35,343 nucleotides of DNA from Chiloscyllium plagiosum. Its lineage: Eukaryota. The DNA is taken from NCBI RefSeq assembly GCF_004010195.1, contig NC_057752.1:5213121-5248463 (forward strand). The letters run 5' to 3'. Shown piece by piece: positions 3,080 through 35,343 of this stretch. How positions within the stretch are numbered: the stretch's first letter is position 1; each line of letters starts with the position of its first letter. The notes beneath the pieces were generated by a model that did no database searches, was not told the origin of the DNA, and worked only from the letters and a program-made list of their open reading frames with translations. Both the position numbers and the translations under genes were made by a program.

Positions 3080-6000
3080 GTGAGTCTTTTTTATTTCTCT
3101 ATTTTGAAGGGGAGAAATCTCGTGCGGACTCAGCTTTCCCCTTGGAAACGGCGCGCGGTTGTAAAATTCTTCCAGTTCATTCCGAAGGTTATGTTTTATT
3201 CTAAATGTAGTCAATTACTGTCAACCAGAAACAAGAGCTTTTGTTAGTGTACTTCGTGCATCAGTTTCTGTGGGTACTTCACAATGTAATTGAATCCATT
3301 GGTTGCTGTGAATGTTGTGTACAATATTATTTTCCTTGTGTCAGAACATTCTGTAGACCAGCATTCACCACTGATTTGATTCATCTATCTCCACGTTTCC
3401 CTTCAGCTCCTCCTCCTCCCCGTTCTTGACCATAGTTCTTCTCTTTCGACCCCCCTCCCCAAAATGTTTTTTTTAAATTACCAGAATAAAAAGTTAAATA
3501 GTAGTTTGTTGGGTATTTCCAGTCCCACTGCATTTTTAAAATGATTCGATACTGTCTCAGAACGTGATGTGGAGGAACCGGTGTTAGACTGGAGTGTACA
3601 AAGTTAAAACTCTCACAACACCAGGTTATAGTCTAACAGATTTATTCGGAAGCACTAGCTTTCGGAGCGTCGCTGATTCACCAGGTAGTTGTGGAGCAGG
3701 GCCACAAGACACAGAATTTATAGCAAAAGATTAGTGAACAAACCTAGATTTCTGTTAAGTCTTTCTTCTTTTAGAATGGGTTGCAGGTTCACTAATGTCT
3801 CAGAACGTGTCCTTTCTTGTCTATGTTGCCCGGTTACAGGTGTGGATGAAGGAACTCAAATCATGTTTCCCGGGCTACTGTTATCTCTCACCTGCATATC
3901 TCCAAGTTGCAGTCATTTTCAAAACACGAACATCTGTGGATGCTGGAAATCTGAACCGAACACAAAGTGCGGGACAAAGTCAGCAAGTCTGGCAGCATCT
4001 GTGCAGAGAGAAACACAATTAACGTTTCGGGTAGCCTGACGAAAGCTCACTAGACTTGAAACGTTAACTGTTTTTCTCTCTCCATAAATGCTGCCTGACC
4101 TGCTGAGTTGCTCAAGCACTTTGTTTAATTTTTGTCATAGAAATGCATTTTAAACCGGTTTTGTGTTGCTTGCTGTTATTGAACTGATTCTCCCGTAGCC
4201 ATTGAAGGGGGAAAGCGCCCCTTCCTTTTTTTGTGGGGGGTGAGTGGGTGAAAAGAAAGATTTTAAGGACAAAAAATGTGATCATTTACATCTTTAGCAT
4301 AGCTTTAAAATATAGATACCAGCATACCCTATTCTTTAATGAAGTTTTTTAAAACTGAAAATCTTCTATTTGTTCATGATGTTTGAATCACTTTGAATGC
4401 AGTAAAAATAGAATAATTCAGATGCTAGAGTTCTGAAATAATAAGTGCTGGAGAAACTCAGCAGGTCTGGCAACAAATGTGGAGAGAGAAACAGTTAATG
4501 ATATGACTTCCGAACTGAAAGGGGTGAAACCTTATGGTTCTTATGCTACAGATAGAAGGGGAGGAAAGTGCATGTGGAACAGATTGGGAGGGTGCCCAGA
4601 GCCAAAAACAAAGATGATGCTAATAGTGGTTTTAAAAAAAAGGGTGTGAATAAAAGTATGAAAATGAATTTGCTTTGCTGATAGCAAAGCCATCAAGGCA
4701 TGATAGGAGGGAAATGGAGCTAAGAAAAATGGAGAACAGAGATAATGCTTTGACGTTTTGGAAGACCACTTTTGAGTCGTGGAAGCTGGAGTGCTATGGA
4801 GGCAAGTGCTGCAGTCAATTTGCACACCAAGATCCCACAGACAACAATGTGATGAATTCCCAATGTGGAGTTCTGCTTTTCCTTCCAATAACATATGTAA
4901 CATCAATTTGAAGCAGTGGAAGAGTCAGAGGCTTTTAACATCTCATCTAAAGGTTGGTGTGAATATTGAAGTACTTATGAGGTACTGCACTGGAGCGTCA
5001 GTCCAGAAGATTTGCCTAAATTGGAAAAAGGCATGAATCCACAAGCTTCTAACCAAGTGCAACCTACTTAGTCAAGCTGGTGCTCACTTTTTAACACAAG
5101 TAAGCCATTAACATTCTGGCTTGATCAGCAAGGGAACTTCAGGTGTAAACAACACTGTTAAACCAGGAAGGGAGTTGAAATGGGGGCCTTTCTTTTAGTT
5201 CTATTTAGTTAATGGTTTTCAACCTTTTCTGTTTGGGGGCCCTCTGCAAATGTTGTTCCTGCTTAAGTATGTTAACAAAAATAAAGAATTCTGATGATCC
5301 ACCAGGTTTTTAAGTTCTGTGTATTCCAGTTCTGGAAATCTGTGGTATAATGCACCAGCTAACCTAGCTATTAAAACAAATAACTCCTGTGACCCATTAA
5401 AATCAGAATTTATCAAAGTAATCTCAAACTTTATTTAAATCTTGGGGATTCAAAATTTTGCGCCATTAAATGTGATGTAACAGGAAACTTTAAACACCAT
5501 ATGCTTGGAATGGCATTCTTATCTGTATTTAGATTTGAACTGAAATTGTTATGGTCTTCCGAATTCCATATTCTAGCAGAAAAAACACCTTTTTAAAACA
5601 AAAAACAATGTAAGTACAGGTTTGATTTAATGCTATCTTTTCAGTAAATGCTAAATGTTTTCTCATTCTAAAACAAATTACTTTGTAAACTCCTTGTAGG
5701 AAAGTCATCGCTAACAATCCAATTTGTGGAAGGACAATTCATCGAATGCTATGACCCTACAATTGAGAATAGTAAGTATGGTCTTCATTGGGTGGTACAA
5801 ACATCTTTGAACATTGAGGGCATCTCGAGGTGACTGAACAAATTTGGAATTAACACTGTGATTAAGTTTCCCCCATCCCGAAGATTTTGATGTGCTGGGG
5901 CGCAGCAGGGCTTATGGTCTCTGTCTGGTATATTGTCTTTGTGATCCTCATTTATGCATAGGTTGAGACAATGAGTATTGGCAGGCTGAAATAAAAACAG

Positions 6001-9000
6001 AATATGCTGGAGAAACTGAGCACATCTGACAGTATCTGTGAAGAGAGAAAAGGAGTTAATGTTTTGAATCTAACTTCTTTACTTTGGAACTCTGTATTGG
6101 TAGGCTACTTAACTTTTGAGACATCAACACCAAGCTAGATCCTGTCCTTGACCAGTGTTCACAGAGAGTATATCTGTCTCAATAGCAACTCTGCAACCTT
6201 TGACATGTAAGATGTTTATGGGATTGAATAGTTGTGTATTTTAAGAAATAGGTACACTTTTTAAGCAAGAGAATACAGAAGTAATCAAACATTCATGAGT
6301 TGACTTATTAGCATCACCTTATATGTCACTACAAGTAAGAATTTACAGTTACTTAACACCCTTTCATAACTGCACAACAACCAAGTGCTTAAAACCAATG
6401 AAGTTCTCTTGAAATGTAGTTATAGGAATAGTGGCAGCCATTTTGTAGATAGCTCTGTGATGGCCAAATAACTTGTTTTCCTGAGGGATGAATATTGGCC
6501 AGGATATTGGAGGTTCCCTGTGCTATGGGATCTTTTCCATCTCCCTGAAAAGGAAACTGATAGTTGACATCTCATCTGAGAGACTTCACTTTCAACAGCG
6601 CAGCACTCCCTCATTGTTGTACTGGAGTGTAAGCCTGGATTATGCACTAAGGGTTTTTGAAGTGGGTCTTGAATTTACAATCGCTTGATTCCGGGAGAGT
6701 GCGACCCAATGAATGCTTTTGTAATTCACTTTGAGAAAGGTACATTGACCTGGTAAAATATCTCAATGTCCCCCAATCTAATTTTGGCCTGAGCACTGCA
6801 ATTTTAAAATTGACCAGCTACACTTGCTCCTCAGGTTTCAGGCCCCTTTTCCATGTCAGTTTGATACCTGTTTATCTTACTCCAGAGACTAAAATACTGC
6901 TCTGTTTTTACTGTTGTCAGTATGACTGATGTTTGACTCAGTAGTGCTGAAAGACTATATCTTGCTTGCAGGTTTATTGTCAGAACAAAGTGCAGCTAAT
7001 AATGATAGAATGTAAACAATCTTATTTTAAAAAATGCATGTTTTCTCCAATTCATAAGATTTTTAAAAACTGTTTTGCAGCTTTTAATAAAACCATAAAT
7101 TTTGATGGACAGGACTTCTATCTGCAACTAGTGGATACTGCTGGGCAGGTGAGAGCTACATGCGTATGATCTTCGAGAGGGATGGTTTTCACTCTTTGAA
7201 TTTTACAGCACGAAAGGAGCCCAGAATGTCGACACTGGCCAACAAGTATTCTAGCACTTGGTCTATTGCTTTTATAGGTTATGGCACCTCAAGTGTATAT
7301 CCAAGCTCTCTTTGAAAAATGTGATTAGGATTCTGAGTCTAGCACCCTTTTTGAGGCAGAGAGTTCTGAATTTGCAACAGCCTGTGAGTGAGAAAGCTCC
7401 CCTCAAATCTCAGACCTCTCTTCCCCCTAAATCCATGACCCCAGGTTATGGACTTCTCAGTTAAAGGGGAAAAGGTCCTTCTTATAGACTCAATCAGGAC
7501 CCCTCACAGTGTTATAAATTTCAATTAAATCTCCCTTAAACTTCCTCTGTTCCAAAGAAAACCCTCTAGCTTATTGAATGCTTCCTTATTTTCCAATTCA
7601 CACAACATATTTTTAAATCTTCTCTGTCCCGTTTCAAGTGCAGTCATATTCTTGCTACAATATGGTGACCAGAATGGCATGCTATATAATCCAACTGTGC
7701 TCTATTACAGGGGTTGGTTAGCTGAGTTGGCTGATTTGTGATGCAGAGTGATGAAAACAGGAAGGGTTCAATTCCTGCACTGGCCGAGGACTCGCTTCCT
7801 CAACCTCTCCCCTTGCCTGAGGCATGGTGATCCTCAGGTTAAACCACCTGCAGTTGCCTCTCTCTCTAGGCCCTATGGTCCAGTGGGACGATGGCGACTT
7901 TACTTTTAATCAGTGTTTTATACAGCTCCAGCATAATCTCCCAGCTCTTATCCTCAATGCCTTGGCTAGAATCATAGAGTCATAGAGATGTACAGCACGG
8001 AAACAGACCTTCAATCCAACTTGACCATGCCGACCAGATATCCTAAATTAACCTAGTCCCATTTGCCAGCACTTGACAAGCTGCCTATACAGCTTCCCCA
8101 CTATCTATCATGCTTGTTACTGCCTCAAAAATTCTAATAAATTTGACAGGCATAATTTCCTCTTCATAAAGTCATAATGACTCTGATCGTATTATGTACT
8201 TTGTAATGGCAGAGCATTTTATCCTTTTTAATGAACTCTAACATTTTCCCAATGTCAAGTGTTAAGCTAACTGGCCTGTGGTTACCTTTTTCTTTTCTTT
8301 GACCCCAAATTGAAGAAGGGTATTACAGTAGCATTTTTCCAATCTGCTGGGACCTTTCAAGAATATTAAGATATTTGAAGATTACTTCCAATACATTCAC
8401 TGTCTTTATGGCTATTTCCTTTAATAACCTAGGATACAACCCATCAGGTCCAGAGGACCTAACTGCATGGGGCTTTTAGCTCCATTAGTTTCCCTGGTAA
8501 TTTTTCTCTAGTGATAGCTATTTTATTTATTTCCTTCTCATTTTTCATCCTTGGATTTAATACTTTTCAAATGCTATTAGTGCTCTCTATTGTGAAGATT
8601 GGTACACCTCTTCCATTTTCTTGTTTCCTATTGTAATTCTCCAGCTTCATTCTCTAAGGGACCTATGTTCATTTTGGCTTCTTTCTTTCTTTTCATATAT
8701 TTTAAGAATCTTGTACTTTCTGTTTTTTAAATTAATTGTTAGTTTATCCTCTTAGTTTATTCTCTCCGATTTTTGGGTAATCTTTTGTTGGCTTTTACCG
8801 TTCTCGATTCTCTTGCTTAACACGAATCTTGACCACATAGTTTTATTTTATTCTTGATTTTATTCTTGACCTCCTTAGTTAACTGTGGTCAGTTTATTCT
8901 CATTAAAGAATCCTACTTTCTCATTATTTTTGCTGTGTGTCATGAATTGTTTCATAAATGTCTGCCATTGTTCATCAACAATCTTTTCTGCTAAACTCCT

Positions 9001-12000
9001 TCCCAGTCCAGTCCAGCCAACTTTGCCCTCATTCTGATATTTAAATTTAGCACAGTTGTTTCCAACTCCAGTTTCTTGATTTCCAACTGAATGCTCAATT
9101 CTACCATGTCATGGTCACTGTTTCCTAGACTATATTTTACTCTGAGATAATTTGTTAAACCTGCTTCATTACACAATACCAGACCCAAACTAGCCTGATG
9201 CTTAGTTGGATCCACAACATTATGTGCTAGGAAATTGTCCCTAATATACTCTGAATTTTTCCTCATGGCTAACTCTACCAATTTGATTTTCCCACACTAC
9301 ATGAAAATTAAAGTCATCAGTGATTTAATGTACTGTTTTTTTTTAAAATACCCTCATCATCTGACTTATCCTGTGTCTTGCAGTATAGTTACTGTTGGGG
9401 GTGTGCAGGTCAGGGGCTATGGACTACTCCCACCAGTGTCTTCTTCCGCTTTGTATTTCTTATCTCCACCCATCTGGATTTTACATCTTCAGGTTCAAGA
9501 TCATTTCTTGCCTTCGTACTTATTCCATCCATGTATTAATATGGATGAAGTGGAACCAATGGATCTAATGTATTTGGACTTGCAGAAGGTGTTTGCTATG
9601 GTGCCACACATTATGTTACTTACTAAGATAAATGCCTGTGGTATTGGGGGTAATACATCACTGTGGATTGAGGATTGCCGAACCAATAGAAGATAGAGGG
9701 TTAGGATAAGAGGGGCATTTTCAAGATGGCAACATGTAACCAGTTGTGTGGCACAGGGATTGCTGCTGGAACCACATATATTTACACTATATATCTCAAT
9801 AGCTTGGATGAGGAAAGTGAACGTGCGATAGCCAGGTTTGCACGTGACACAAAAATAGGTTGGAAGGCAAGTGGTGAAGATGACACCAAATCCGGACGTA
9901 GGCCAGTTAAGCGACCAGGTAAAAACTTGGCGGATGGGATATAATGTGGGAAAATATGAAGTTTTGCACTTTGCCAGGAAGATTAGAGTGGCTGAATATT
10001 ATTTAAATAGAGAAAGACTGCAGAAATCTAAAGAACACAGGGATTTTGAAATCCTTGCCCATGAATCACAAAAAGCTAGCATCCAAGTTTGACGGGGAAT
10101 GGGGAAGGCAAATGGAATAAAACCAAGAACTGCACATACTGGAGATCTGAAACAAACAAAAACAGAAATTAGTTCTAGCTCTGAAGAAGGGTCATAGTAC
10201 TTGAAATGTTAACTCTGTTTTCTTTCCACAGATTCTGCCAGACCTGCTGAGTTTCTGCAGCAATTTCTGTTTTTGATTGTTTAAGGCAAAATGAATGTTA
10301 GCCTTTCATTCAAAGAGAATGAAACATAAAAGTAAAGAGGTTTTGCTAAAACTATACAAGACACTTGTCAGGCCACAGCTGGAATACTGTGAACAGGTTT
10401 AGGCCCTTTATCTAAGGAAAGATATACTGGCATTGAACCAGACAAGGTTCATTAGGCTGATAGCAAGTATGGAGGAACTGTCTTATGAGGAGAGGTTGTA
10501 TAGATTGGGCTTGTACTTGTTGGAATAGGGAAGAATGAGAGGTGACCTTATTGAAATATACACAATTTTTCAAGGATGTGACATGGAAAGGTTGTTTTCC
10601 CTTGTAGGACAGTCTAGGATCAGAGGGCATCATCTCAGAATAAGGGGTTGCACATTTATGACCGAGATGAGGAGGAATTTCTTCGGAGAGTAGGGAATCT
10701 GGGAATTCCTTTACCGCAGAGGACAGTTAAAGCTGGGCCATTAAACATTTTCAAGGCGGATGTAGACAGATTTTTAACTCAGGAAGAGAATCAGGGTTAT
10801 GGAGAAAAGGTAGGAAAGTAGAGTTGAGGATGATCAGATCTGCCATGATCTCATTGAATGGTGGAACAGACTGGATGGACTGAATGGCCTACTTTTGCTC
10901 GTATGTCTTATAATTGTGCTTTTGCTTCATTTATTTTGTTCTGAATATCATATGCATTTGAGTAAAGAGTTATTAATTTTGCCTTTTTATCATTTCCTCT
11001 TCTTTTGACCTTAATTTTCTGCTGTAATTTCTTTTGTAAATATATTTATTAGCAGATGTTTTTAACTTTACAAACATAAAATTATTGAAAAACTACAATC
11101 AGTAACAAATATCAGTATAATAAAAAGGAAAAGAAAAACATGCTGTAATTATTTAAGGTTTGTGCACTCTTTGTGTGTATCGTTGCCTAAATAATTGGCC
11201 TGCAATGCTACCACTTCCTTTTTGCTTTGGAAGCCTACCTATCCCCTTTGAGGAGAAAGTGAGGTCTGCAGATGCTGGAGATCAGAGCTGAAAATGTGTT
11301 GCTGGAAAATGTGTTCCTGAAGAAGGGCTTATGCCCGAAACGTCGATTCTCCTGTTCCCTGGATGCTGCCTGACCTGCTGCGCTTTTCCAGCAACACATT
11401 TTCAGTACCTATCCCCTTTGTAGTTCTACCCCCTCTAAATCGTTTAAAGACCTCTCTGTAATCCAGTTGTTCAATTTGCCAGGATATTGGTCCCATCACC
11501 ATTCATGTGAAGCCCATCCCACCCAAATAGCTTCTTTCTATCTCTGTACTGGTGTCAGTGCCCCATGCATTGAAAACTGTTCCTCTCGCACAAATCTTTG
11601 AGCCATGCTTTTAATGCGTAGACTTTATTTACCTTTTATGTCAGTTCGTCTGTGGCTTGGGTAATAATTCTGACATTATTACTTTGGAGGTTCTGCTTCT
11701 TAAGTTAACTCCTAAAAGTTCAAAATATTTCAGCAGATCCTCCTATCTATGTCATTGGTACTAAAGTGGACATCAACAACTGGACCCCTCCCCTCCCACT
11801 CGAAGTTTTTCTCCAGTTCTGAGGAAATGTACTTAACGCTGGCACTGCACAAAGGACACAGCCGTTGGGAGTCGTGCTTATGGCTGCAGAGACCAGTATA
11901 TATCTCCCTAATTATACTGTCCCCTACCAATACTACGTTCCTATTGCTTCACTTTCTGTTTGAATGTCTCCCTGTACCATGATGCTGTGGAGTTCACTCA

Positions 12001-15000
12001 TCCTCCCTGCAGTTCCCGCACTTTTCCACACACCTTGCAAAAGGCTCTTAACTGTTGGACAATTGTGGGGGCTGACATTCCTCAAAAGCTTCCTCTTGGA
12101 TACCCCATAACTGCTTCACCCATAGGCATGCCCTTCTGTTCCTGATCGTAGGCTAAATTTGAATCATTTAATCTGAAGGGTGTCACTACCTCCAAGAGAA
12201 AAGTGTCCAGGTAGCTTACCTCTTCGCTAATGTAATGTATTATTTGTAGATTGGACTCCAGCTCATCAACTGATGCTAAGTTGCTTGAGCTGCGAACACT
12301 GCTATAGAAATGTTCACTCTGGATCACCTTGGTGTATGGCAACTCCCACGTGCTGTTGCAACATGGCCCACCATCACGATTGTATTTAACTTATTAATTA
12401 ATTACTCCAGTATCCCTCCTCATTATGCTTTGTTATAATTTTTTTACACACCAGTATCAGCCTTGTTTAAAAATAGCAATATTAAGTACAAATAGAGAGG
12501 AGGGGAAAGGTCTGGAAACCTAAACCCAAACTAAAGACCTTATTTTTACTTTAAAGAGAAGAAATACTCGCCAATCCTATTCTTCAGTCAGCTGCTTTGA
12601 TTAGAAAAAAGCAACCAAATACCTCTTTCCTTCCTCTGCTTAGTTCCTTGAGAAGCTCAACTCCCAGGACTCCAATGTGGGTTGAACCCAACCACACTGT
12701 CAGTCTTTGTATCATCTGTGAACCTCTTAACCATTAAAGTCCAAATATATACCACAAAAAGCAAAGAGCCAAGTACTGAACCCTATGGAGCAACAATCTA
12801 AATGGTGACACTGCCTGCACATGTGGTGGTCTAAGCCACGAGAAGCATTAGCATTACCCAAATGGCACAAGATGCGCATTCACTGGGACTGAAATTCTGT
12901 CCCATTCCTTTACTTTTTAAACTACTCATCAGGCATTGCTGTTACCTGCTCACTCACTTGAAATACTGTTTTGTAAAAGATCGGAAAAACACTTATGCCC
13001 TTGCCACCAAATTCCTGAGTTAAGTACTCTATCAATGCAATACTTCATTAAGCTGGACACCGTGAAATCCATGTTAACCAGTGTCAGGTTTGGAAAATGG
13101 AATGTGATAGAGGGTTTTTTTTGTGTATGTTGTAGGAATGTGCCCACCATTTTGAGAAGGCTTACTTGATTTCAACGTTTCAGTACTTGTGCAGCCTTTT
13201 TTTAAAAAATGGTTTTAAGTACAATCACCAACTTGATAAACCCAAGTTTATTTCCTTCTTTAGTATTTTCTCCTGTTTCTGCTTTTAGGACGAGTACTCT
13301 ATGTTCAGCCGGTCCCACACCGTGGATGTTCACGGCTATGTTTTGGTTTACTCTGTAACATCAATGAAAAGGTGAGTAATCCATGTTAAACAACTCAGAA
13401 TTAAATGGAAGTAGTTTTTTTTAAACAAACCTGATACGTCTGGCAACTACCATGAACTAACACTGTATATCAAGATTAATCGTAGATTTAAGTTGACTTG
13501 AGCAACCAAATAAATCTTGGTTTTGATGGAAGTTAGTACTTACAAGGCTGATTTCAGCTTATATGGGCATATACAGCATAAGTTAAGTGGAAAATAAATT
13601 CTCTATTCTGCTGTAAATCCATTCAGTCTGATTTTGACCCTTAGTTTTGAAGAATACATGGCTTAAAAATATTGGGCTGCTTTATGAAATAGATGGATGC
13701 CTTTGGGCTTGGTGTGTGAGGTCCTGGGGAGACCTTGGAGTGCAGGTTCATAGTTCCTTGAAAGTAGAGCTGCAGGTAGATAAGATAGTGAAGATGGCAT
13801 TTGGTATATTTTCCTTGATTGGTCAGAGCATTGAGTATAGGAGTTGGGAGGTCATTTTGCGGCTGTACAGGACATTGGTTAGGCCACTGTTGGAATATTG
13901 CATGCAATTCTGGTTTCCTTCCTATCAGAAGGATGTTGTGAAACTTGAAAGGGTTCAGAAAAGATTTACAAGGATGTTGCCAGGGTTGGAGGGTTTGACC
14001 TACAGGGAGAGGCTAAATAGCCTGGGGCTGTTTTGCCTGCAGTGACAGAGGCTGATGGGTGACCTTTATGGAGGTTTATAAAATCATGAGGGACATGGAT
14101 AGGATAAATAGACAAAGTCTTTTCCCTGGGGTGGAAGAGCCCAAAACTAGAGGGTATAAGTTTCAGGTGAGAGGGGCAAGATATAAAAGGGACCTAAGGG
14201 GAAACATTTTCACAAAGAGGGTGGTATGTGTATGGAATGAACTGCCAGCGGAAGTGGTGAAAGCTGGTACAATTGCAACATTCAAAAGGCATCTAGATGG
14301 GTATATGAATAGGAAGGGTTTAGAGGGATATGGGCCAAGTGCTGGCAAATGGGACTAGGTTAGGTTAGGATATCTAGTCGGCATGGACAAGTTGGACCGA
14401 AGGGTCTGTTTCCGTGCTGTACACCTCTATGACTCTATAAGGTGTGGAAGCAGAAGTAGACCATTCAGCCCATCAAGTCTGCTCAGCCATCAATGAGATC
14501 ATGGTTGATCTAATAATCCTCAAATCCACTTTTCTGCCTTATGCCCACAAGCCTTGATTCCCTTACTGATTGGAAAATCTGTCTATTGCAGCCGTGGAAT
14601 GAACTCAACAACCCAGCCTCAAAAGCCCTCTGTGATATTGAAGTGCATTGTTTCCTCCTCATCTGTCTTAAATGGGCAACTCCTTGCAAATGAGATATGC
14701 CCACCCACAAGGGGAAACAACCTCTGTTTCTACCCTGTCAAGCCTCCTAAGAATCTTGTATATTTCAATATTTCTCTCATTCTTCTAAACTCCAACCAGT
14801 ATGATTTCAATCTACTGAACCTCTCCCTCATACAAAAATTCCCTCCCCCCGCAGTCAATCTGATGAACCTTCTTTTGACTGCCTCCAATTTCAGTGTATC
14901 TTTCCTTCGAAAAGCAGACAGTATTCCAGATGAGTGCCTGACTAGTGCCTTGTATTATTTAGCAAAATCTCTCTATGTTTATACTCCATTCCCTTTGAAA

Positions 15001-18000
15001 TGAAGGCTAAACTTGGATTGTGATAGAACTTGTGATTCATTCACAGGGACTCTGAGATCCTTGTGTTCTGTAGCTTTCTGCAGTCTCTCCCTATTTAAAT
15101 AATATTCAGCTATTTTATACTTCCTGACATTGCATAACCTCCCTTTTTTCCCACATTATATTCCAATTGTCACGTTTTTGCCCACTGTCATTCAATCTGT
15201 CTCTATCCCTCTTTGTTTCATCCACCATACTTGCGTTCCCACTTATTTTTGCGTTATCTGCAAACTTGGATGACAGAAGTAAATGTATTATCACCAAGTT
15301 GTTGAGATGTGTGTGCACATATGCAAGTGAAAATTGTGATGGAATACTTCTCACTTGTCTGGATGAGTCCAGCTACAACAGTATTCAAGAAGGTCCACAC
15401 CATCCAGAACTAAGCAGTCAGTAACATTGATGCACCTCCAATAATCACTCTCTTCTGATGTGCAATGGCAGCAGTGTGTATGACCTACAAGGTGATATCC
15501 ATCAGGCACTGTGTGAATCATCATCAGCAGAACGTATTCAAATACTATCTGAAACCTCATCATGGTCTGGCATATTTCCAGCTCTGCCATTTGTAAAGCC
15601 GGGAATTGAATGAGTGGAAGAACACAATTCTTGGACCATACTGATTTGATTTCAGCTGGATTAGCAGCTACAGTTGTGCTTAAATATGCAGATGTGGACA
15701 GAAAAGGTTAGGCTATGACGACCTTCATCATGCAATAGTTTTCTGATAAGCTGTTAAATTCACTCCCCTCATATTTACAATTTTTATCCTAATGTGAATT
15801 TGCTTTCAGAAAGTTGAGGATGGGTGTGAACCACAAGTAGGAGAACAAAAATGTTGGACAGTATCTATTATTTTAAAATATGTACCTACGTTTTAAATTC
15901 TAATCTCCCTCCCTTAATGTTTTCTAGTCGACTTGTCATTTTGTGTAATTCTCAAACTTTTTAACACACACATCTGAGCGACCTCCTCGCCACCAAAATC
16001 ACTGTCAATGTTTTGCTTAAACTAATCACCACCACCAGTAAAAACACCCATGTAGCCAGTTAAGTATTTACAAGCAAAGCCCATTATGGGCAATGCAAAC
16101 CATCAAAGGTGAGGGGGTGGTGGGTAGGGAGAGCGGGAATGGGGAGGATTTTATGTACTGATTAATAATTGATCTCAGCTGCTGCATTCAAATCTAACAG
16201 TTTTGGTGGCTGATCTGTCTTTTTTGGTATTTTTGTTGCAGCTTTGAAGTGATTAAGGTGATTCACAGTAAACTGCTAGATATGGTGGGAAAAATCCAGT
16301 GAGTATTGTTGGTTTCTGTCACATTTTATTTTTCTATCTGATTTGAGTGATCTTGAATAAATGTGAAACAAAAATAGAAAGTGCTGGAGAAATTCAGCAT
16401 GTCTGGCAGCATCTGTGAAGAGAAAAATAGTTAATGTTTTGAGCCTAGTGACTCTTCTCAAAACAGACTGCATAAACCTGACTGTGCCCAGCGCATTACG
16501 TTCTGCAGTGAGTCTGGACGTTCTGGTGTCACATGCAGAGTGAGTGCACTTTGGCTTCAAGTCTTTATATTCATTACACTTTCTGTTCCATCATCTGAGT
16601 CACGAATGGCGAATGCTTGAGGCATCGACGCATCCATGTGGACACCACTAGATCCACCCTGCCCATTGGATGTGCTCTTTGTCTCTTACTGCTCAGCCAG
16701 TTTCCTAAACAACAACTCAAATTTACCTTCGATTTTGAGTTACAACTTCTGCTAACAATCTCTTATGATGGACTTTATTGAATGTCTTTATGGAAATCCA
16801 TGAAAATATAATATCCATAGACTATAAAATCCAATACGATTCCTGTCAATTCCTTTAGTACGACTTCAAAAACATTCAAACAGGTTTATCACTTGGAATA
16901 CTTTGCCTATGTACTTTACAAAATGTGTCAACAGAAGATCTTCTATCTTGCATGTGATTTTTGGCTTTCTTGTCTTGGGGGTACGTTGTACAGTTCTCAG
17001 CAAAGTTAATCTCTATTTAAGGCCTTGTACAACGTCCCATATGCCTCCAGATGTCTTTGCAAGTACATTTTCCCAAAGGAAGAAAAAAAAATTGGGCTAA
17101 ATTAATTAGTTGATAAGCACCTTCTATCTAAATGAAATTCTGAATCTTTCCTTATCAAATGTTACATTCTTTCCACAGATGTTGATCTTTGTAAGTTTGT
17201 TTTTGCAGCAAACAATTCTGTATTATGTTCTTTTCCCACTATTAAATATTGTTCTTTCAGGACTAATTAGTGCTGTAAAATGAATAGCTAAATCCTTCAT
17301 GTTTACACAAAGATTTCCTCCTGTGAGGGGAATGTTAATCAGTCACTGCAACTTGACAGGACAGCTATCATAAAGATGTTGCGCACCTTCTTTATCCCAG
17401 ATCATTGATAGTGTGGCTTCTCCCACCTGATCACAGTAGTTAAGAGCTGGAATTTTACAAAGTTCTTGTATGTTTATCAACATACTATTGACACCATAAA
17501 GGATAATTAAACTCCTTGTGTAGTAAGTTTCAATTCAAATGTTCAGTGATTTATTTGATGTTTTAATTCTAAATCTAACCTATCACAATCAAGCCTGTAT
17601 AATATGTGCTAAAAAGCAGGTCTGTCCTGTGCTTACGGTTTAGCTTTAAAGTGCTCCCAACCAAGAATAACACTGACAAAAGCACAGATGTGGTTCTCAG
17701 TGTCGCAGTCATACAGCACAGAAACAAACCCTTTAATCCAACTTGTCCACGCTGAACACCCATCCCAATCTGAGCTAGTCCCATTTGCCAGCATTTAGCC
17801 CATATCCCTACAAACCCTTCCTATTTATATACCCATCTAGATGTCTTTATAAATGTTGTGATTGTACCCACATCCTCCATTTCCTCTGGCAGCTAGTCCC
17901 ATACACGACCAACCTTGGCATGGAAAAGTTACCCCTTGAGTCCTTTGTAAATCTTTCATCTCTTACCTTAAATCTATGCCCTCTAGTTTTGGATTCCTTT

Positions 18001-21000
18001 ACTTCAAGAAAAATACCTTGTCTATTTACCCTGTCCATGCCCTCCATGATCTTGTAAATCTCTAAGGTCAGCCCTCAGCCTCTGCTCCAGGTGAAAAGTC
18101 TGAGCCTGTTCAGCTTCTCCTGATAACTCAACCCCTCCAGTCCCAGCAACATCCTTGTAAATCTTTTCTGCACCCTCTCCAGTTTAAGAACATCCTCCCT
18201 ATAGAAGGGCGATCAGAATTATGTGCAGTATTCTAAAAGTGGCCTCTCCAATGTCCTGTACAGCAGGAACACAACGTACCAACTCCTATACTCAATGTTC
18301 TGGCCAATTAAAGCAAGTGTGCCAAATGCCACCTTCACCAACCTGTGTACCTACGACTCCGCTTTCAAGGAACTATGCACCTGCACTCCTAGGTCTTTTT
18401 GTTCGGCAACACTCCCTAGGTATATATTAAGTATATAAGTCCTGCCCTGGTTTGCCCTGCCAAAATGCAACACTTCACATTTATCTAAATTAAACTCCAT
18501 CTGCACTGCTCAGCCCATTGGCCCATCTGATCAAGGTCCTATTATACTGTGAGGTAACCTTCTTCACTGTCCGCTACACCACCTATTTTGGTGTTATCTG
18601 CAAACTTACTAACCTTGCCTCCAATATTCCCATCCTAAAAATTTATATAAATGATGAAAAGCAGCAGACCCAACACCGATCCTTGTGATACACCGCTGGT
18701 CACAGGCCTCCAGTCCGAAAAGCAACCATCTATCTCCATCCCCGTCTCCTATCTTCAAGCCAATTTTGTATCCAATTAGCTGGCTCTCTTTCCCCCCACC
18801 CACGCCCCCAGATCCCATGTGATTTAACTTTACTAAGTAGTTTACAGTATGGAACTTGTCGAATGCTTTGCTGAAGCCCGTATAGACAGTATCTACTACT
18901 CTTCCTACAAAAATCTTCTTTGTCACCTCTTTTTAAAAAAAGTTTCAGTTAAATTGAGTGGCACAGTGGCTCAGTGGTTAATACTGCTGCCTCATAGCAC
19001 CAAAGACCTGGGTTTGATTCCACTCTCTGGCAACTGTGTGGAGTTTGCATGTTCTCCCTGTGTCTCTGTGGGTTTCTTCCAGGTGCTCCAGTTTCCTCCC
19101 ACAGTCCAAAGATGTGCAGGTTAGGTAAATTGGCCATGCTAAATTGGAAATGCAGGGTTACAGAGATAGGTTAGCGGGCGTGTCTGGATGGGAATGTGCT
19201 TTTAGAGGGGGGGGAGGGCAGAGGAGGGGGAAGTGGGGGGTTGGTGTGGACTTGATAAGCTGAATGGCCTGCTTCCACAGTGTAAGGACTCCATGTACTC
19301 CAGTGAGACACAATTTCCCATGCACAAAGCCATATTGACTATTGCTAATCAATCCTTGCCTTTCCAAATGCATATAAATCCCATCCCTGGAATCCTCTCC
19401 AAAACCTTACCTACCACTGACGTCAGACTCGCTGGTCTATAGTTCTCTGGCTTTTCTTTACAGCCTTTCTTAAATAATAGCACCATATCAGCTAACTTCC
19501 AGTCTTCTGGCATCTCACCATTTGTTTTCAATGATCTAACTATCTTGGCAAGGGGTCTAGTAATCTCTTTCCTAGCTTCCCACAAAGTTCTGGGAAATAC
19601 CTGATTAATTCCTGAGGATTTGCGTATCTTTATGCGTTTTAAGACCTTCAGCACCACTTCTTCTGTAAGTGGAGGCAGGATAGAGGTGGAGTGGAGGAGG
19701 GTAAGTATAATGTGCAGTGAATAAACTTGGGATTTGAATTTAGCTCGAGGTCAAACAGTAAACCAGGCTGCATGAAGTTTATTTCACCTTAATTGAAAAT
19801 AACCAGGGAGGAGGATTGAGTTTGTAGTGACATTTTGAGAGGTGTCTAAAATTATGCAAGAGATCTGGAAAAAGCCATACCTGGAGATGTGCTGGTAGCA
19901 CTGTGATATGCAGGAGTGGATCCACCTGTGGAAATCCACTGACTGAACCATGGAGGAAGGTGGCATGACTGACCGTGTTGAATGTTTGAGAGAATGAGGA
20001 GAGGAGGCATGAGGGTCACAGAGGCTATTGTTGGCAAGTTTGACCAGAGTAGTATTGGTATTCTGGGCAGAGTGGAAATCAGAAAAAAAGGGAATTTGAC
20101 AGAAAAATCTGGGAGAAGTGAGTGTAGCTGGAAGGCGATGATCCATTGAAGTATCTTGCATAAAGAAGGGAAGTCAGAAACTGGGTGACAGTTGAAGGGA
20201 ATGGATGGATCCAGGGTGGATGTTTTATGAAAAAAGGATGATGATGACAGTTTTGAATGGAAGATAGTGCCTAAGTAGAGGGAGTTAGAAACCAAGTTGT
20301 TGTCTACTGGGACCAGAAATGGTTACTTTGTCAGCAATTGGATGGGGTGGGAATGTGTAATGGATCATTTGGTGACAATGCTGTGTGATTGAATCATACA
20401 GAGTAGCAGATACCTAGTTTCAGTTTGGGCAATAATATGGTTTATTTTGACAATGGAGGGGAAAGTAACCATTCTCTCATTTCTCTTGATTACCTAATAA
20501 TCTCTGTTAGAAAAAGCATTGCATATTGAATCTGGCTTGATTGTGGTTCTCCTACAACTAACAAGCTTGCTGAACCTCATTTCTCTGTTTTTGTGTGATG
20601 GATAACACTTCGGGTCAGATCTGGCAACAAATTAATCCTGAGTTGTAGAGTCGCTCTTGAATTCAGTGATCCTAAGATGCTTTTCATCCTTTTAAATAGC
20701 AAAATGTAGTATAAAATGTTGTGCTCCTTTAAAGGGTTAATCATGGCATTCATCAAACTTTGACAAAATAAGTGAAAGAGGGGAAAAATGCAACTCTTTA
20801 TAAAGTGTGACCATAGTTGGAAACCTCTAGATTTAAATATGGCCACAATGGATTTTTGAATCCCAAAAAGGCTAGTTATTCTGGCACAAAGACGTGATGA
20901 TTTTTAAATAGCTTAGTAAACAGTTGAACATCAGAGAATAGGTGTAGAATGGATTTGACTGTTCTTTAAATCTGTTTTTTATTAAAGGAGAGCATGAAAA

Positions 21001-24000
21001 ACACATGCCAGTTTTTCTTTTAACAGTGCTGACAAACATGTGCTATGAATGCAGTTTATACAAAATGGGGACAGATTCAACAGTTTGTCTTCTCTCTTGC
21101 AAGAGTAGCAGTGATTTAGTAACAACTTACCAGATGTCTGTTTTCGGCAGGTATGTTAGCTTAATTGCAGGCACAGCTAAAACTATTGTCCACTGCAATG
21201 ATCCAAGCTGATGGTATTGCTGGATAAGTCAGATCCCAGAACTAAATCCGGCTTGATGGATCATGTTTTGTTTTGTAGACTAGAATTACAGATAACGCCA
21301 GGATGAAGCTATTATACACCTGAGCCAAAACATTAAGTAACGTCTTTAGACTTAAAACTCCACACTTCTAATCTGGGACTAACACTAACTCTTGACTTCA
21401 AGGTAATCTAGTTTTACTATATCCTTCCCTTCTCAGGAGCACAGATCTACACAGCCATCTTCGTCTAAGGACTTCACAGGACTGCTCAAAACTCAAAGTA
21501 AAACTTCTTTTTTTAAAAAAAAAGTTCTCTAAACTATAGGTATTTACCTTAAGCTTTAATAAAAAATCTCTCCCAACCTTCTAAACTGGAGTTTGTTTAT
21601 CTTGCTTGGTCCTAAAATCCTGCCAATGTAGACAAAAACCTATTCATTCTAAAGCTAGGCCTCAGATTGTTTTGAAGGAAAACACCATAGATATAGAAAC
21701 ATTTGCAAGTTAATTATTCAAATACAGAGAAAACCACATGTTGCTAATTCAAAACCAAAAACTCAAATGTACAATAAATGGTATTAATAGCAAATATATA
21801 AATGACAGTCTATATCACACCTGGAAGGAGTGACACAGCAGTAGACAGTCTTCCTAATATGAGTAACAATTACCTGTTCATGATTATATTTATTTAACCC
21901 TCAGCCGGCCATCATCTCCACATTATGCTCCACCTCTTGAACCTCCCTGTTTTTGCCAGATGTGCAGGTGAGTCGTGAGGACATGCATGTCAGTAGATAC
22001 TTTTCTTGCATTTGTTTAATAATACATTCCTTGCATGGAAGTAGTTGAGATACTTCATGCAAACCATAGAGCAAATGTAAAATCAAATTGGAAAATCTAT
22101 AATTGAAAATATTTATAGACCATCTCTGTTTCACATTCAATTATCTCTCAAATGTAAATCTGATTAGTGGCTTCTATTGAACTTTGAAACTTGGGGTTGG
22201 TGAAGGGGAAATGGAACATTGTCAACCTAAAGTTAATAAATTGTCATTATGACCAGAAGTCAAAAGCCTCAACTCTCCAATATTGGATATTGAATGAACT
22301 ATTTATACAAAGCAGATCTTTTGGCAATTATATTGATGTAGTCTGTTCTTTATTTTACTTTTTGGGATTATTTTTGACCTGGGTCGTGAGCTGCAATCAA
22401 AAATGTGAGTACTAGGAAATATTGAGTCTTTAAATTTCTCGGTGGCTGTAACAGAGGTACTTTACCTTTCAGTCTAACAACTTAAATTGGTAAATGAGAC
22501 TGCTGCTACGACCAGAAACTCCAGTGTTTTGCAGGCAAAAGGCCAACATCCTCTCTAGTAACCCTCATATACTAGTGATGGATATTCTGTGTTGTGCTTT
22601 GTTTTCTGATCAATATTATACCTGTGCCTGCTGTTGGAGATACAGTGGCAAGAATCAGTCATATTTCAGAACAACTTCATGTAAAAGTGTGCTAATGCAG
22701 TTGATTTTGCACTCTGGAATCTGTTTGTAATTTAAATGGGATGGCTTTCATAATACTAGGAGCCTTGGCCAATATTACTGAACCATTCTTCACTAGGTCC
22801 TTTGATATTAATACAGAATTGAGTGGTATTATAGCTGAGAATGCTTTCAAGTGTTGTTGAAGTGCTTAGCTGCTACGTGATTTAGTCTTGAAATGGAAGT
22901 AATAGTAAGTGCATCAAATGCTACAATAAGTTTATAGTTAATTGCAATTTGACATTTATTGAAGTATAAGTATTCTGTTGAAGAAAATTAGTCAAGAGTT
23001 GTACAGTACAGAAACAGACCCTTCAGTCCAACTAGTCCATGCTGGCCAGATATGCTAAATTAATCTAGTCCCATTTGCCAGCATTTGGCCCATATCCCTC
23101 TGAACCCTTTCTATTCATGTACCCATCCAGGTGCCTTTTAAATGTAGTTTGAGTAATGCCAGCCTCCACCACTTCCTCTGGCAGCTCATCCAATACATGC
23201 ACCACCCTCTGCTTGGAAAAAGTTGCACCTTAGATCCCTTTTTAAATCTCACCTTTTAACCCTAGACCTCCTAGTTTTGTACTACCTCGCCCTGTGAAAA
23301 AGACCTTGTCTATTCACCCTGTCCATGATTTTATAAATTTCTAGAAGGTCACCTCTCAGCTTCCAACTCCAGGGAAAATAGCCCCAGCCTATTCAGTCTC
23401 TCCCTACAGCTCAAACCATCTGACCCTGGCAACATCCTTGTAAGTCTTTTCTGAACCCTTTCAAGTTTCATAACATCCTTCCTAAAGCAAGGAGACCAAA
23501 ATTGCACGCAGTATTCACTTGCTGGCACTGAGAAACTTCGATTATCTAGTTTTATCAAAGGATAATGTGGAAAGTCTGAAGATAATTGTGTGCAGTTTTG
23601 GTCGCCATACTATAGGAAGGATGTGGAGGCACTGGAACGGGTGCAGAGGAGGTTTACCAGGATGTTGCCTGGTATGGAAGGAAGATCGTAGGAGGAAAGA
23701 CTGAGACACTTGGGGCTATTTTCATTAGAGAAAAGAAGGTTTAGGAGTGACTTGATTGAGGTGTACAAGATGATTAGGGGGTGAGATAGGGTTGACAGTG
23801 TGAACCTTGTCCCGCATGTGGAGTCGGGTGTTACAAGGGGGCATAGCTTTAAATTAAGGAGGGGTAGATATAGGACTGAAGTTAGGGGCAGGTTCTTCAC
23901 TCAGCGAGTCGTAACTTCATGGAATGCCCTGCCAGTAGCAGTGGTGGACCCTCCCTCTTTATGGGCATTTAAGCGGGCATTGCATAGGTATATGGAGGAT

Positions 24001-27000
24001 AGTGGGTTAGTATAGGTTAGGTGGGCTTGGATCGGCGCAACATCGAGGGCCAAAGGGCCTGTACTGCGCTGTATTCTTCTATGTTTCTATAACCCATAAT
24101 TGCTTACCACAAACTTGGGTGCACTGGTCATGAAACAAATGCCTGATCTGGTGCTTGATTTGTTTTTTCATACTGTAGACACAATTACTATTTGTTGATT
24201 TCTCCTCATCCTTTAGAATACCAACAGTGCTGGTTGCAAATAAGAGGGATCTTTCTAAACAAAGGTATGTAGTTTTCTTTGCTCAGCAGCAAGGCTTCAC
24301 ATAAAATAACGCCAGACAAATATGATTTTAATTATCTCTTGAGCCATAGTAATGTGAGGGAGAAAAAAAAGAGAATAAGTTCCTACAATATGTTTGGAAT
24401 TCGCCTTTTTAATCCAACAATTTAAAACAAGGCTGTAATTGATCTAGTTCTAGGGAATGAAATGAGGGACGTAGAGAAATATCTCAAAAATTGAAAAGAA
24501 CGTTGGAGAATAGTGAGATATAATGTTAGAAGAGGGAAAACTTTTAAAGAAAACAATTGATTAATAAGTGGTATGGAAGACATTGAGGAAAAGTAGTAAA
24601 GGAATTTGAAGCAAGAGGGATGAGGACATTACCCACATATTGTGTCACCCATTTAGTAAACTGGATCAACTAGTTAACTGGTTTATAATGAGACAGCAGG
24701 TTGGAAACTGCATATTATGCATGGAATGTCTTGCCTGCAGATTCTCCCAAATCTCCCCTCCATCTACAAAATGCAAGTCATGGAATACTTTCCCCTTGTC
24801 TACAACAACTTTTGAAGCTCAACATCAACAACGATAAAGCAGTCCTCTTGATTGTCTCCCCACTCCCTCCACCACTGGCACATACTGGTTGCAGTGTGTA
24901 CCATCTACAAGATGCATTGCAGCAACCTGTCATGTCACCTTTGCTAGCACTTTCCCAACCCGTGACCTCTACCACATCAAGGAACAAGCTTAGCAGATCC
25001 ATGGGAACACTACTGCCTGCAGGTTCCCTCCATGCCATAAATCATCCTGACTTTGAATTCAATCGCTGTTCCTTCATTATTGCTGGCTCCAAGCGGTCCC
25101 TACTTAAGAGCATTGTGGGGATACCTTCATCTGGACTGCAGCAGTATGAGGTGACAACTTGCCACCAAGTTGAAGATAAGTAAGGATGGATTAAAAATGC
25201 TATAATCCAATTATTAATATCTTGTCATAATGCCCAGAGCCTGGGAATTAATTGAAACCATTGTAAAAATAAATCTCATGGTGGATGAAGTAACAGATGT
25301 ATAATGAATATTCTACCTCATTTCTTTGAACAAAGTATGAGATTTTTTAAAAAAAACACATTGGCTATGTGATGAGATGGAACAATCAAATATGACAGGA
25401 TAGTAATAACTTTTAATAAGAAAATTTGCTGAATCTCCAAATCAAAATAAGCATCAGACCTAAAGCTATGGATTCTGAAATAGAGGCAAGTCCAGAGTAG
25501 AAATAATAGAGGCTCTGACTACAATCTTTTAAATGTCCTTGGATATGCAAATTTTGCAATTGGACTGAAAGTTTGCCAGTGTAATGTCGCTGCCACAAAG
25601 AGATAAACCAGGTAACTAGATCTTTTCAACCTAACTATGTTGATGGACAAGGTTGGTAGAGTCCCTACAGGATGAAATTTGTGGTAGTCTAAAAAGACAT
25701 TGGTTAATTATGGATAAGCAATGTGGAATTGTTGTAGGCCAATCATTTGTGATATAAGTTATTTAAAGAAATTAGTCTATATTGTGAAAGGAATTAAGCT
25801 ATGTATAAAAGCAAATTGCTGCAGATACTGAAAATACGAAACAAACACTGAGAATGCTGGAGAAACTCTAAGTTTGGCAGCATCTGTGAGCGAGAAACTG
25901 AGTTAATGTTTAGAGTCTGGTATGTCATCTTCAAAATTTCAGACTGTTATGTAGTTTGAAAAGGTGTTAGGATGACTCCTAGAAAACTTCCTAAAATTAA
26001 GGTACACAGTAGTAAAGGGAATGTGACCGCATTAATAGGAAGTTGTTAAAGGATGGAACATGGAAAGCATAGTTAATGGATTCAAAAGAAAAATATTGCA
26101 GATGTTTAAAAAGTAGTGTAGAGACAGAAAATACTGCAAATATTCAACAGGTCTTGTAACGTCACTGGAGCATAGTTCACGTTTCAGGTGAATGCTCTAA
26201 TAAAGAGTACAGGTTAAAAGATTGAGCCATTTTGGCTGCCTTATTTCAGAAAAGTTGTGAAGACTATGGAGTGTGCAAATGAGATTCACTGTCCATTCTT
26301 TAAACCTATTGCTCCTGAAACCTGCTACCAAGAAATGGAGGCTCCTTTCATTACAACAAAGAAGGTTAAGATGGGGGGACATGAAATAAAATTACTGAGC
26401 TCTGAAGGTTATATTTATGCACTGGTAAAAGTAGAAATTTAACATAATAACACAGAACAAAGTGGGGGGGGCTAGAAGTTAAGGTAAAATGCCCGAACAG
26501 AAACTGCTGGTATCAGAATAACTTTAAAACAGTTACATTCTGGAGGAAAAAAATGTTTGCTGACGTTTTATTTGAGTTTGACAGTTCTGCTTTCTTCTTG
26601 CACAATTTCGAAGTGCCTTGAAGTCACTTTAGAGTTCTCTGAACTCTTAAGACATTTGTAGCTTTGCACCTCATGAGGGATTCCTTCTGGGAATTTCACT
26701 TTGATGTAAGTAGTAAGGAACTGTCGGTGAAGGGAGAGCAGAATTAATGGACACCTGCTTGCAGGGAACTTTAACCTCCCAACTGAGTTTATAATCCCTG
26801 AACAACATACCTGCAGCTCTCTGAGGAGCAGTCCATATGAAGACTTCAATTCTCTAAAGAGGTTGTGTAACCTGCAACTAACTGCCACAGAGGTGCAACA
26901 TTACTTATTGCAATCAAGGTCTCTGCAGCCCTGAATGTCTTTGTCTTTGTCTCAGATGACTACCAGAGGGAATATCTACTCAGGCGAACTGAAGCTACTA

Positions 27001-34385: not shown

Positions 34386-35108
34386 AGGAAGAAAGTGAGG
34401 TCTGCAGATGCTGGAGATCAGAGCTGAAAATGTGTTGCTGGAAAAGCGCAGCAGGTCGGGCAGCATCCAGGGAACAGGACAATCGACGTTTCTGGCGTAA
34501 GCCCTTCTTCAGGAATGAGGAAAGTTTGCCCAGCAGGCTAAGATAAAAGGTAGGGAGGAGGGACTTGGGGGAGGGGCGTCAGAAATGTGATAGGTGGAAA
34601 GAGGTCAAGGTGAGGGTGATAAGTCAGACTGGGGTGGGGGCGGAGAGGTCGGGAAGAAGATTGCAGGTTAGGAAGGCGGTGCTGAATTCGATGGATTTGA
34701 CTGAGACAAGGTGGGGGGAGGGGAAATGAGGAAACTGGTGAAACCCGAGTTCATCCCTTGTGGTTGGAGGGTCCCTAGGCGGAAGATGAGGCGCTCTTCC
34801 TCCAACCATCATGTTGTTGTGGTCTGGCGATGGAGGAGCCCAAAGACCTGCACATCCTTGGTGGAGTGGGAGGGGGAGTTGAAATGTTGAGCCACAGGGT
34901 GGTTGGGTTGGTTGGAAGGGGTGTCCCAGAGGTGTTCTCTGAAACACTCCGCAAGTAGCCGGCCTGTCTCCCCAATATAGAGGAGGCCACATCGGGTACA
35001 GAGGATGCAATAGATGATATGTGTGGAGGTACAGGTGAATCTGTGGCGGATATGGAAATTTCCTTTGGGGCCTTGGAGGGAGGTGAGAGGGGAGGTGTGG
35101 GCGCAAGT
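34386..35108 (-). mobile_element. Young 5'-truncated Penelope-like retroelement (probably Neptune-type): GIY-YIG endonuclease, 3' UTR and hammerhead terminus
   Basis: A minus-strand frame absent from the ORF track reads TCAHTSPLTSLQGPKGNFHIRHRFTCTSTHIIYCILCTRCGLLYIGETGRLLAECFREHL...PVAQHFNSPSH..*WLEEERLIFRLGTLQPQGMN, with one premature TGA at 34811-34809. Confidence 0.92.
34480..34517 (-). ncRNA. Minimal hammerhead ribozyme motif in the Penelope terminus
   Basis: The minus strand reads cauuc CUGAAGA a gggc uuac gcca GAAA c GUC gauug. Stem I cauuc/gauug pairs 4 of 5; stem II has one mismatch. Confidence 0.62.
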
Positions 35109-35343
35109 CTATCCCAGTCCCAGCACCCCCTCCTACCCAGATTCATGCTGTCACTGACGTCTTCCTCATCTTCAAAACCAACATCATATCGGCATTGCCA
35201 CTTCACTACCTCGGAATACCTCGAACATGTACCAACACCAACAGCCATGCAAAACTTAAATCTCTCACTCAATCCTTCCCTTTCTGCCATTCCAGGAGAT
35301 GAGAGAACACTGGAGGGCAGAAAGCTCTTGGATTGGTGGAGAG

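Follow-up and report, generated by a model that had tools for sequence, protein, structure and literature searches.

The window analysed here is a stretch of 35,343 nucleotides from Chiloscyllium plagiosum, and its plus strand carries matches to the Ras family in Pfam. Seven coding exons, located by motif at about 3040, 5700, 7080-7148, 13289, 16240, 24230 and 29580, span about 3040-29640 of that strand; the Pfam match itself is to Ras, and from its motifs we take the gene to encode a Rheb-like small GTPase. The intron between coding exons 3 and 4 contains a 155-bp insert (11251-11405) that is flanked by an exact 15-bp direct repeat and carries a hammerhead ribozyme motif in sense, as the sequence-only reading of this DNA had placed it. 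The 11236/11406 pair is the sole exact 15-mer pair spaced 100-330 bases in the whole window. A longer copy of the same Penelope-like element (PLE) family lies near the end of the window (Table 1). Its GIY-YIG fragment (34812-35108) matches Pfam at an E value of 0.019, and the fragment in another copy (L171) at 0.0011, both below the curated cut-off. Relatives of the element protein carry RVT_1 and GIY-YIG domains, one of them above the Pfam cut-off, and the nearest proteins are from cartilaginous fishes. Translations of family copies contain a cysteine motif between the reverse transcriptase (RT) and endonuclease (EN) domains.

Other repeats in the window include about ten older hammerhead-like terminus copies on both strands (1682-1777, 2390-2488, 3922-4124, 4436-4510, 5969-6088, 10177-10277, 16346-16463, 25819-25935, 30590-30690 and 31383-31480); the copies at 10177 and 31383 start 4 bases before the core, and 3935-4122 is a head-to-head pair. 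LINE-type RT fragments are found at 381-935, 10293-10890, 13638-14490, 17707-18435, 22995-23886 and 27428-28026, and a SINE-like repeat at 18958-19292 and 30131-30481.

Table 1. Features of the insert and its surroundings. Element positions (+) are counted from the A of an initiator-like motif; sites A and B lie at about +93 and +130.
Feature	Positions	Strand	Remarks
Host intron, third between coding exons	7149..13288	+	Pfam and motif-located exons
Left TSD copy, 15 bp	11236..11250	.	11246-11250 with microhomology to element RNA past site B
Inverted arm, element +130 back to +72 (tail and 22 overlap bases)	11251..11309	-	putative cDNA primed at site B
Inverted repeat, left arm, 22 bp, overlap of the two cDNA arms	11288..11309	.	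sequence
Junction filler, 4 bases, then 2 bases common to the sense arm	11310..11313	.	putative slippage
Sense arm, element +2 to +93	11314..11405	+	putative cDNA primed at site A, run to the RNA 5' end
Minimal type-I hammerhead motif	11315..11346	+	read from the sequence; palindromic 15.2-16.2; no Rfam match
Hammerhead core	11317-11323 and 11337-11344	+	predicted cut after C11344
Hammerhead stem II	11325-11328/11333-11336	+	sequence
Inverted repeat, right arm, 22 bp	11384..11405	.	sequence
Right TSD copy, 15 bp	11406..11420	.	sequence
Longer 5'-truncated PLE copy: GIY-YIG fragment, 3' UTR, initiator-like motif, degraded hammerhead, tail	34386..35111	-	

The insert consists of two arms of the element terminus joined head to head. 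Element positions are numbered from the A (+1; 34516 in the longer copy) of a motif that resembles an initiator (consensus YYANWYY) and precedes the hammerhead core by 4 bases. The first 56 bases of the insert match 34390-34445 exactly, and the sense part is 91% identical to the same copy, in reverse. This copy was rejected as the source of the insert on account of the 91% identity and its broken stem II, and is a diverged sibling. The 22-bp inverted repeat is formed by perfect reverse complements (MFE z = -4.2), and the junction contributes 4 additional bases that re-copy the bases after the same A-run, 15 bases upstream. The final 5 bases of the left TSD are identical to the element template directly past site B. 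The A arm begins at +2 and has no extra G there. The arms are not nested, each holding sequence that is absent from the other. Thus the duplication, the insert length, the inverted repeat and the hammerhead core noted from the sequence alone are all present. In contigs of a related organism (four runs) the unique flanks beside the insert are not covered, and no joint across the insert is among the joints listed.

Minimal hammerheads of PLEs have the core boxes, an extra base between positions 9 and 10.1, a G10.1-C11.1 pair, a palindromic 15.2-16.2 and a helix I of 4-5 bp, and single motifs showed no cleavage (PMC4209133). The insert shares the boxes, the extra base, the G10.1-C11.1 pair and the palindrome, but its stem I is only 2 Watson-Crick pairs followed by a U-U mismatch, and both stem III and a second hammerhead in cis are absent. 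In predicted folds, stem II pairs with a probability of 0.95-0.97 and stem I with 0.03-0.10 (0.03 for the insert), and the hammerhead-like fold lies 1.0 kcal/mol above the MFE. Rfam hammerhead models found no match in the window, in the insert at E values up to 10 or at a tandem locus of the family described below, where only sub-threshold hairpins appeared. The hammerhead had been called intact; this holds for the core and fails for stems I and III and the partner in cis. The lone hammerhead of the insert is probably silent, and the host intron is unlikely to be affected by it.

The insert belongs to a huge family. An exact 38-mer taken from it has 59,619 matches in the genome, the exact hammerhead core has 30,936, and a reversed tail followed by a core within 8-38 bases has 861. 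Such stubs outnumber the longer copies of the family, and the insert is one intronic stub among tens of thousands, ordinary as a locus. Thirty loci recovered with the whole 155-mer have differing flanks and, in most cases, a TSD of their own, and the outer ends of stub copies carry template bases that are absent from the 155-mer. Some junctions stutter, with the stretch beside site A re-copied repeatedly and in up to three rounds (L031; also L009, L014 and L021), which is reminiscent of the iterative copying of the related telomerase RT and may reflect a similar behaviour.

The layout of the element was assembled from partial copies only. A search for a full-length element through the GIY-YIG fragment yielded none: all 13 long 'open frames' sampled were assembly N gaps. 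Past the tail, the sequence continues to an ATG and on into coding sequence for the PLE N terminus (571 exact matches), so that the hammerhead and both start sites, A and B, sit at the element's front, upstream of the ORF sequence. Bases past site B are carried by 2,230 copies. Most copies with sequence past the tail run through 40-300 bases of the ORF start and then return to the hammerhead region, with varied junctions; these are internally deleted partial tandems.

A sister PLE subfamily contains a coding-free tandem derivative in which one internal junction has 40 exact matches in the genome. It holds 2-5 hammerheads, with a perfect 4-bp stem I, in units of 224 and 320 bp, and the order 224 bp followed by 320 bp is common to 13 of 30 sampled sister loci (L269-L298; for example L275, L276, L289 and L297). 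Several of these loci are bounded by TSDs of 12-15 bp, and four have an inverted B arm together with an A end. Since the 224 + 320 order is kept, the form in which the sister element moves seems to be a linear RNA of several units, and it is a candidate PLE-derived retrozyme-like element. A near-perfect inverted repeat upstream of a hammerhead at L275 (1728-1817, plus strand) gives sub-threshold matches to miRNA hairpins. Long double-stranded RNA would be produced by many such head-to-head copies lying in introns.

The ends of the arms were mapped in a sample made up of the first 87 of 100 matches listed for the 38-mer, in genome order and mostly from the start of one contig; 91 arms were found, of which 85 aligned and 6 were dropped. 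The 3' ends of the 85 arms fall into two narrow zones, +87 to +102 (site A, 40 arms) and +127 to +137 (site B, 39 arms), and lie elsewhere in 6. Their 5' ends lie at -4 to +8 in 47 arms, at +12 to +43 in 13 and at -9 to -6 in 3, and in the remaining 22 at -39 or further upstream, where some are cut by assembly gaps. Among 34 unselected inverted copies, 30 combine one A arm with one B arm, one is A/A, one is B/B and two are unclassed; the A/A and B/B copies both lack a convincing TSD. The pairing in 30 of the 32 classable copies differs from independent choice at p = 1e-7. Across all loci, a set partly preselected for the tail arm, the A/B combination is present in 89 of 95 TSD-bearing inverted copies, and of 129 inverted copies, 79 have a TSD of 14-16 bp. 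Target microhomology at the outer ends averages about 2 bases at both A and B.

Many arms end at a sharp 5' boundary. Among the 30,936 cores, a non-template base stands before +1 in 4,987 and before +2 in 5,351, and in 5,974 the template match continues without mismatch for 9 bases upstream. By hand count of the first 100 matches listed of the 4,987, G precedes +1 in 69, A in 18 and T in 13, against 14 G in the first 100 listed of the 5,351 that serve as control before +2. About 90 of those 100 places were sampled and 85 of the +1 junctions classified: 37 were explained by neither arm nor TSD, and 27 of these have G; of the rest, 17 belong to the inverted arm (13 G), 17 lie inside the TSD (13 G) and 14 are ambiguous (5 G). 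Another tally puts at 30 of the 85 the junctions whose preceding base is accounted for by arm or TSD. In L1 insertions, capped 5' ends are marked by an extra G (PMC11702581), and the terminal repeat of Drosophila Penelope contains an initiator as part of an internal promoter (PMC2377424). Alternatively, the RT could have added the G terminally at an uncapped end, or a master copy could have had G there. The boundary was rejected as a splice acceptor, as there is no AG at +1, and as a hammerhead cleavage end, as the cleavage site at +33 coincides with the 5' end of just 1 of 85 arms. In an RNA run of a related organism, 34516 (+1) is among the main loose ends (55 reads); this is the same genomic boundary in that organism, not an RNA start. 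The one informative raw RNA run of the related organism, made of poly(A) single-cell reads, shows no pile of molecule starts, a second raw run has zero reads on the element, and no RNA set is listed as carrying the terminus.

The reading that we favour, and hold to be likely, is that the insert is a single dead-on-arrival PLE insertion in which the two strands of a target cut with a 15-base stagger both primed on the front part of the element RNA. The family RNA would start at +1 with a cap, the source of the G, followed by the hammerhead from +2 to +36; start sites A and B would lie near +93 and +130, with the ORF beginning at about +168. Of the two target strands, one would prime at B and the other at A, and cDNA growth would stop at the cap to give products of about 95 and 130 bases or shorter, the hammerhead being bypassed uncleaved. 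Head-to-head joining of the two cDNAs would then follow, through microhomology and with slippage, and gap filling would produce the TSD; in the insert, the B arm would have halted at +72 and the A arm reached +2. With purified PLE from an anole, both strands are nicked and extended, synthesis begins at two internal sites flanking the tail, and hammerhead cleavage is not needed (PMC11167929). Taken with that system, double priming at A and B on a capped, uncleaved RNA appears to be the simplest model for our census. The 22 of 85 arms that reach far upstream of +1 mean that other templates, namely tandem RNAs, are used too.

The sequence-only reading had offered two origins for the insert, a stereotyped truncated and inverted Penelope insertion, which the A/B arm ends, the tail on one arm and the TSD now support, and a non-autonomous retrozyme-like mini-element. 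The mini-element, whose own transcripts would be re-inserted, is largely refuted, and we give it very little credence. A non-autonomous derivative with a fixed junction does exist in the sister subfamily, and one 100% identical 155-mer lies on another contig with a different TSD, along with about 40 near-identical full-length matches among the 40 scored of 652 candidates. That identical copy, however, has 2 further template bases at site A. A self-copying unit would keep its junction constant, as the sister element does and thereby provides the positive control that the 155-mer fails; instead, junctions are distinct in 29 of 30 stubs sampled from the 861, and the exact junction of the insert has only 5 genome matches, on four combinations of subfamily markers. 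The 155-mer also has a single hammerhead and no tandem, lacks +1 and any promoter upstream of it, has ends that are off the cleavage site, and has its tail antisense to the hammerhead, so that its own RNA would be without site B. The suggestion that the insertion is recent is plausible in view of the identical copy. Marginally less probable still is that the inverted half arose by self-priming or fold-back of one cDNA, or from an antisense template, as self-priming was proposed for rotifer PLEs (PMC3846280). The agreement of the two arms at marker site 47 in 48 of 51 elements, where both alleles are about equally common, would fit such an origin. A simple fold-back cannot yield the insert, though, because each arm has sequence that the other lacks, and the outer ends, both with microhomology to the target, coincide with fixed start sites. 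Comparison of the arms at three non-CpG marker sites, which could also be mutation hot spots, gives 10 disagreements in 144 against a background of 1.2%. The marker sequences thus suggest that the arms come mostly from one source and that two RNA templates were likely used in a minority of events.

Another possibility accepts the same double-primed insertion and disputes the 5' end, explaining the pile-up at +1 by stalling of the RT at the foot of stem I, by a short solo-repeat RNA or by processing that trims the ends. The boundary does coincide with the 5' strand of stem I, the 5' ends scatter from -4 to +16, two older-family copies in the window likewise begin 4 bases before their core, and transcription starting at +1 was not seen in the RNA run of the related organism. 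Stalling, on the other hand, is expected on entry into a structure rather than after the structure has been copied, the stem I pairing probability is just 0.03-0.10, and a stall does not predict an extra G at one position. There is no AG acceptor at +1, and the 2,230 copies with bases past site B imply that many templates were longer than a solo repeat. We therefore regard this explanation of the boundary as unlikely, and keep to a capped RNA start at +1 as the favoured one.

The combination of an inverted terminal repeat, a one-sided tail and a TSD is an already described PLE pattern. Insertions of EN+ PLEs show an inverted pLTR, a one-sided tail of 30-40 bp and a TSD (PMC3846280, PMC8557442), and the insert resembles them in its inverted 5'-truncated arm (+93/+130), a tail of about 37 bases confined to one arm, the TSD and the minimal hammerhead. 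[quoted passage not shown] The differences from those insertions are that the insert has no ORF sequence, TSDs are 14-16 bp compared with 8-10 bp in the rotifer examples, and the inner ends of the stubs cluster at a single base that is preceded by an extra G. In the in vitro work on the Anolis Poseidon element PAc (PMC11167929) two internal RT starts also bound the tail, both strands are used and cleavage is dispensable. The main text of that report describes no strand difference in the start site, whereas the two ends here use different sites almost always; the PAc start sites are inside the ORF, while those of this family are apparently before the likely start codon; and inverted insertions and TSDs, and their tie to start sites, are not discussed in its main text. 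Twin priming of L1 shares internal priming by the second target end, inversion, a discrete 12-18 bp TSD and the extra G, which in L1 stands at full-length 5' ends, but here both primings are internal at fixed sites, poly(A) is absent and the cDNAs overlap by tens of bases (PMC11702581). Metazoan non-LTR retrozymes are head-to-tail repeats of 170-400 nt, or 150-450 bp in a wider definition with one hammerhead per unit, that are processed to circles and expressed as linear and circular monomers (PMC7229834); the insert is similar in its type-I hammerhead, small size and lack of coding sequence, but is a single head-to-head unit with one hammerhead and shares no common unit and junction with other copies, so that the sister tandem element is the closer analogue. 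In the literature searched, mostly without subscription journals, neither the A/B rule nor the extra G turned up for PLEs.

Whether the stubs as a class record how PLEs integrate is a wider question, to which we give about even odds. In that case, a dimeric RT-endonuclease would make cuts staggered by 14-16 bases and prime at A and B on capped, uncleaved RNA, sometimes on two RNAs, and the same machinery would have spawned the coding-free multi-hammerhead parasite of 224- and 320-bp units, an apparent step from PLE to retrozyme. The origin of the tandem and inverted ends of PLEs is named as open in PMC8557442 and PMC11167929, and the stub class bears on this question. Three sharp predictions for the existing in vitro PLE system are arms paired as A/B, a stagger of 14-16 bp and an extra G, and the sister tandem derivative, whose hammerheads have partners in cis and a perfect stem I of 4 bp, is a better target than the insert for studies of cleavage and circular RNA. 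If the model is true, the position of the start sites 93 and 130 bases from the cap would make a strong-stop-like stub the commonest product, and a single model would account for tail, inverted arm and TSD as well as for solo hammerheads in the tens of thousands. The stub class would then explain the abundance of solo minimal hammerheads in genomes of this sort without requiring ribozyme activity.
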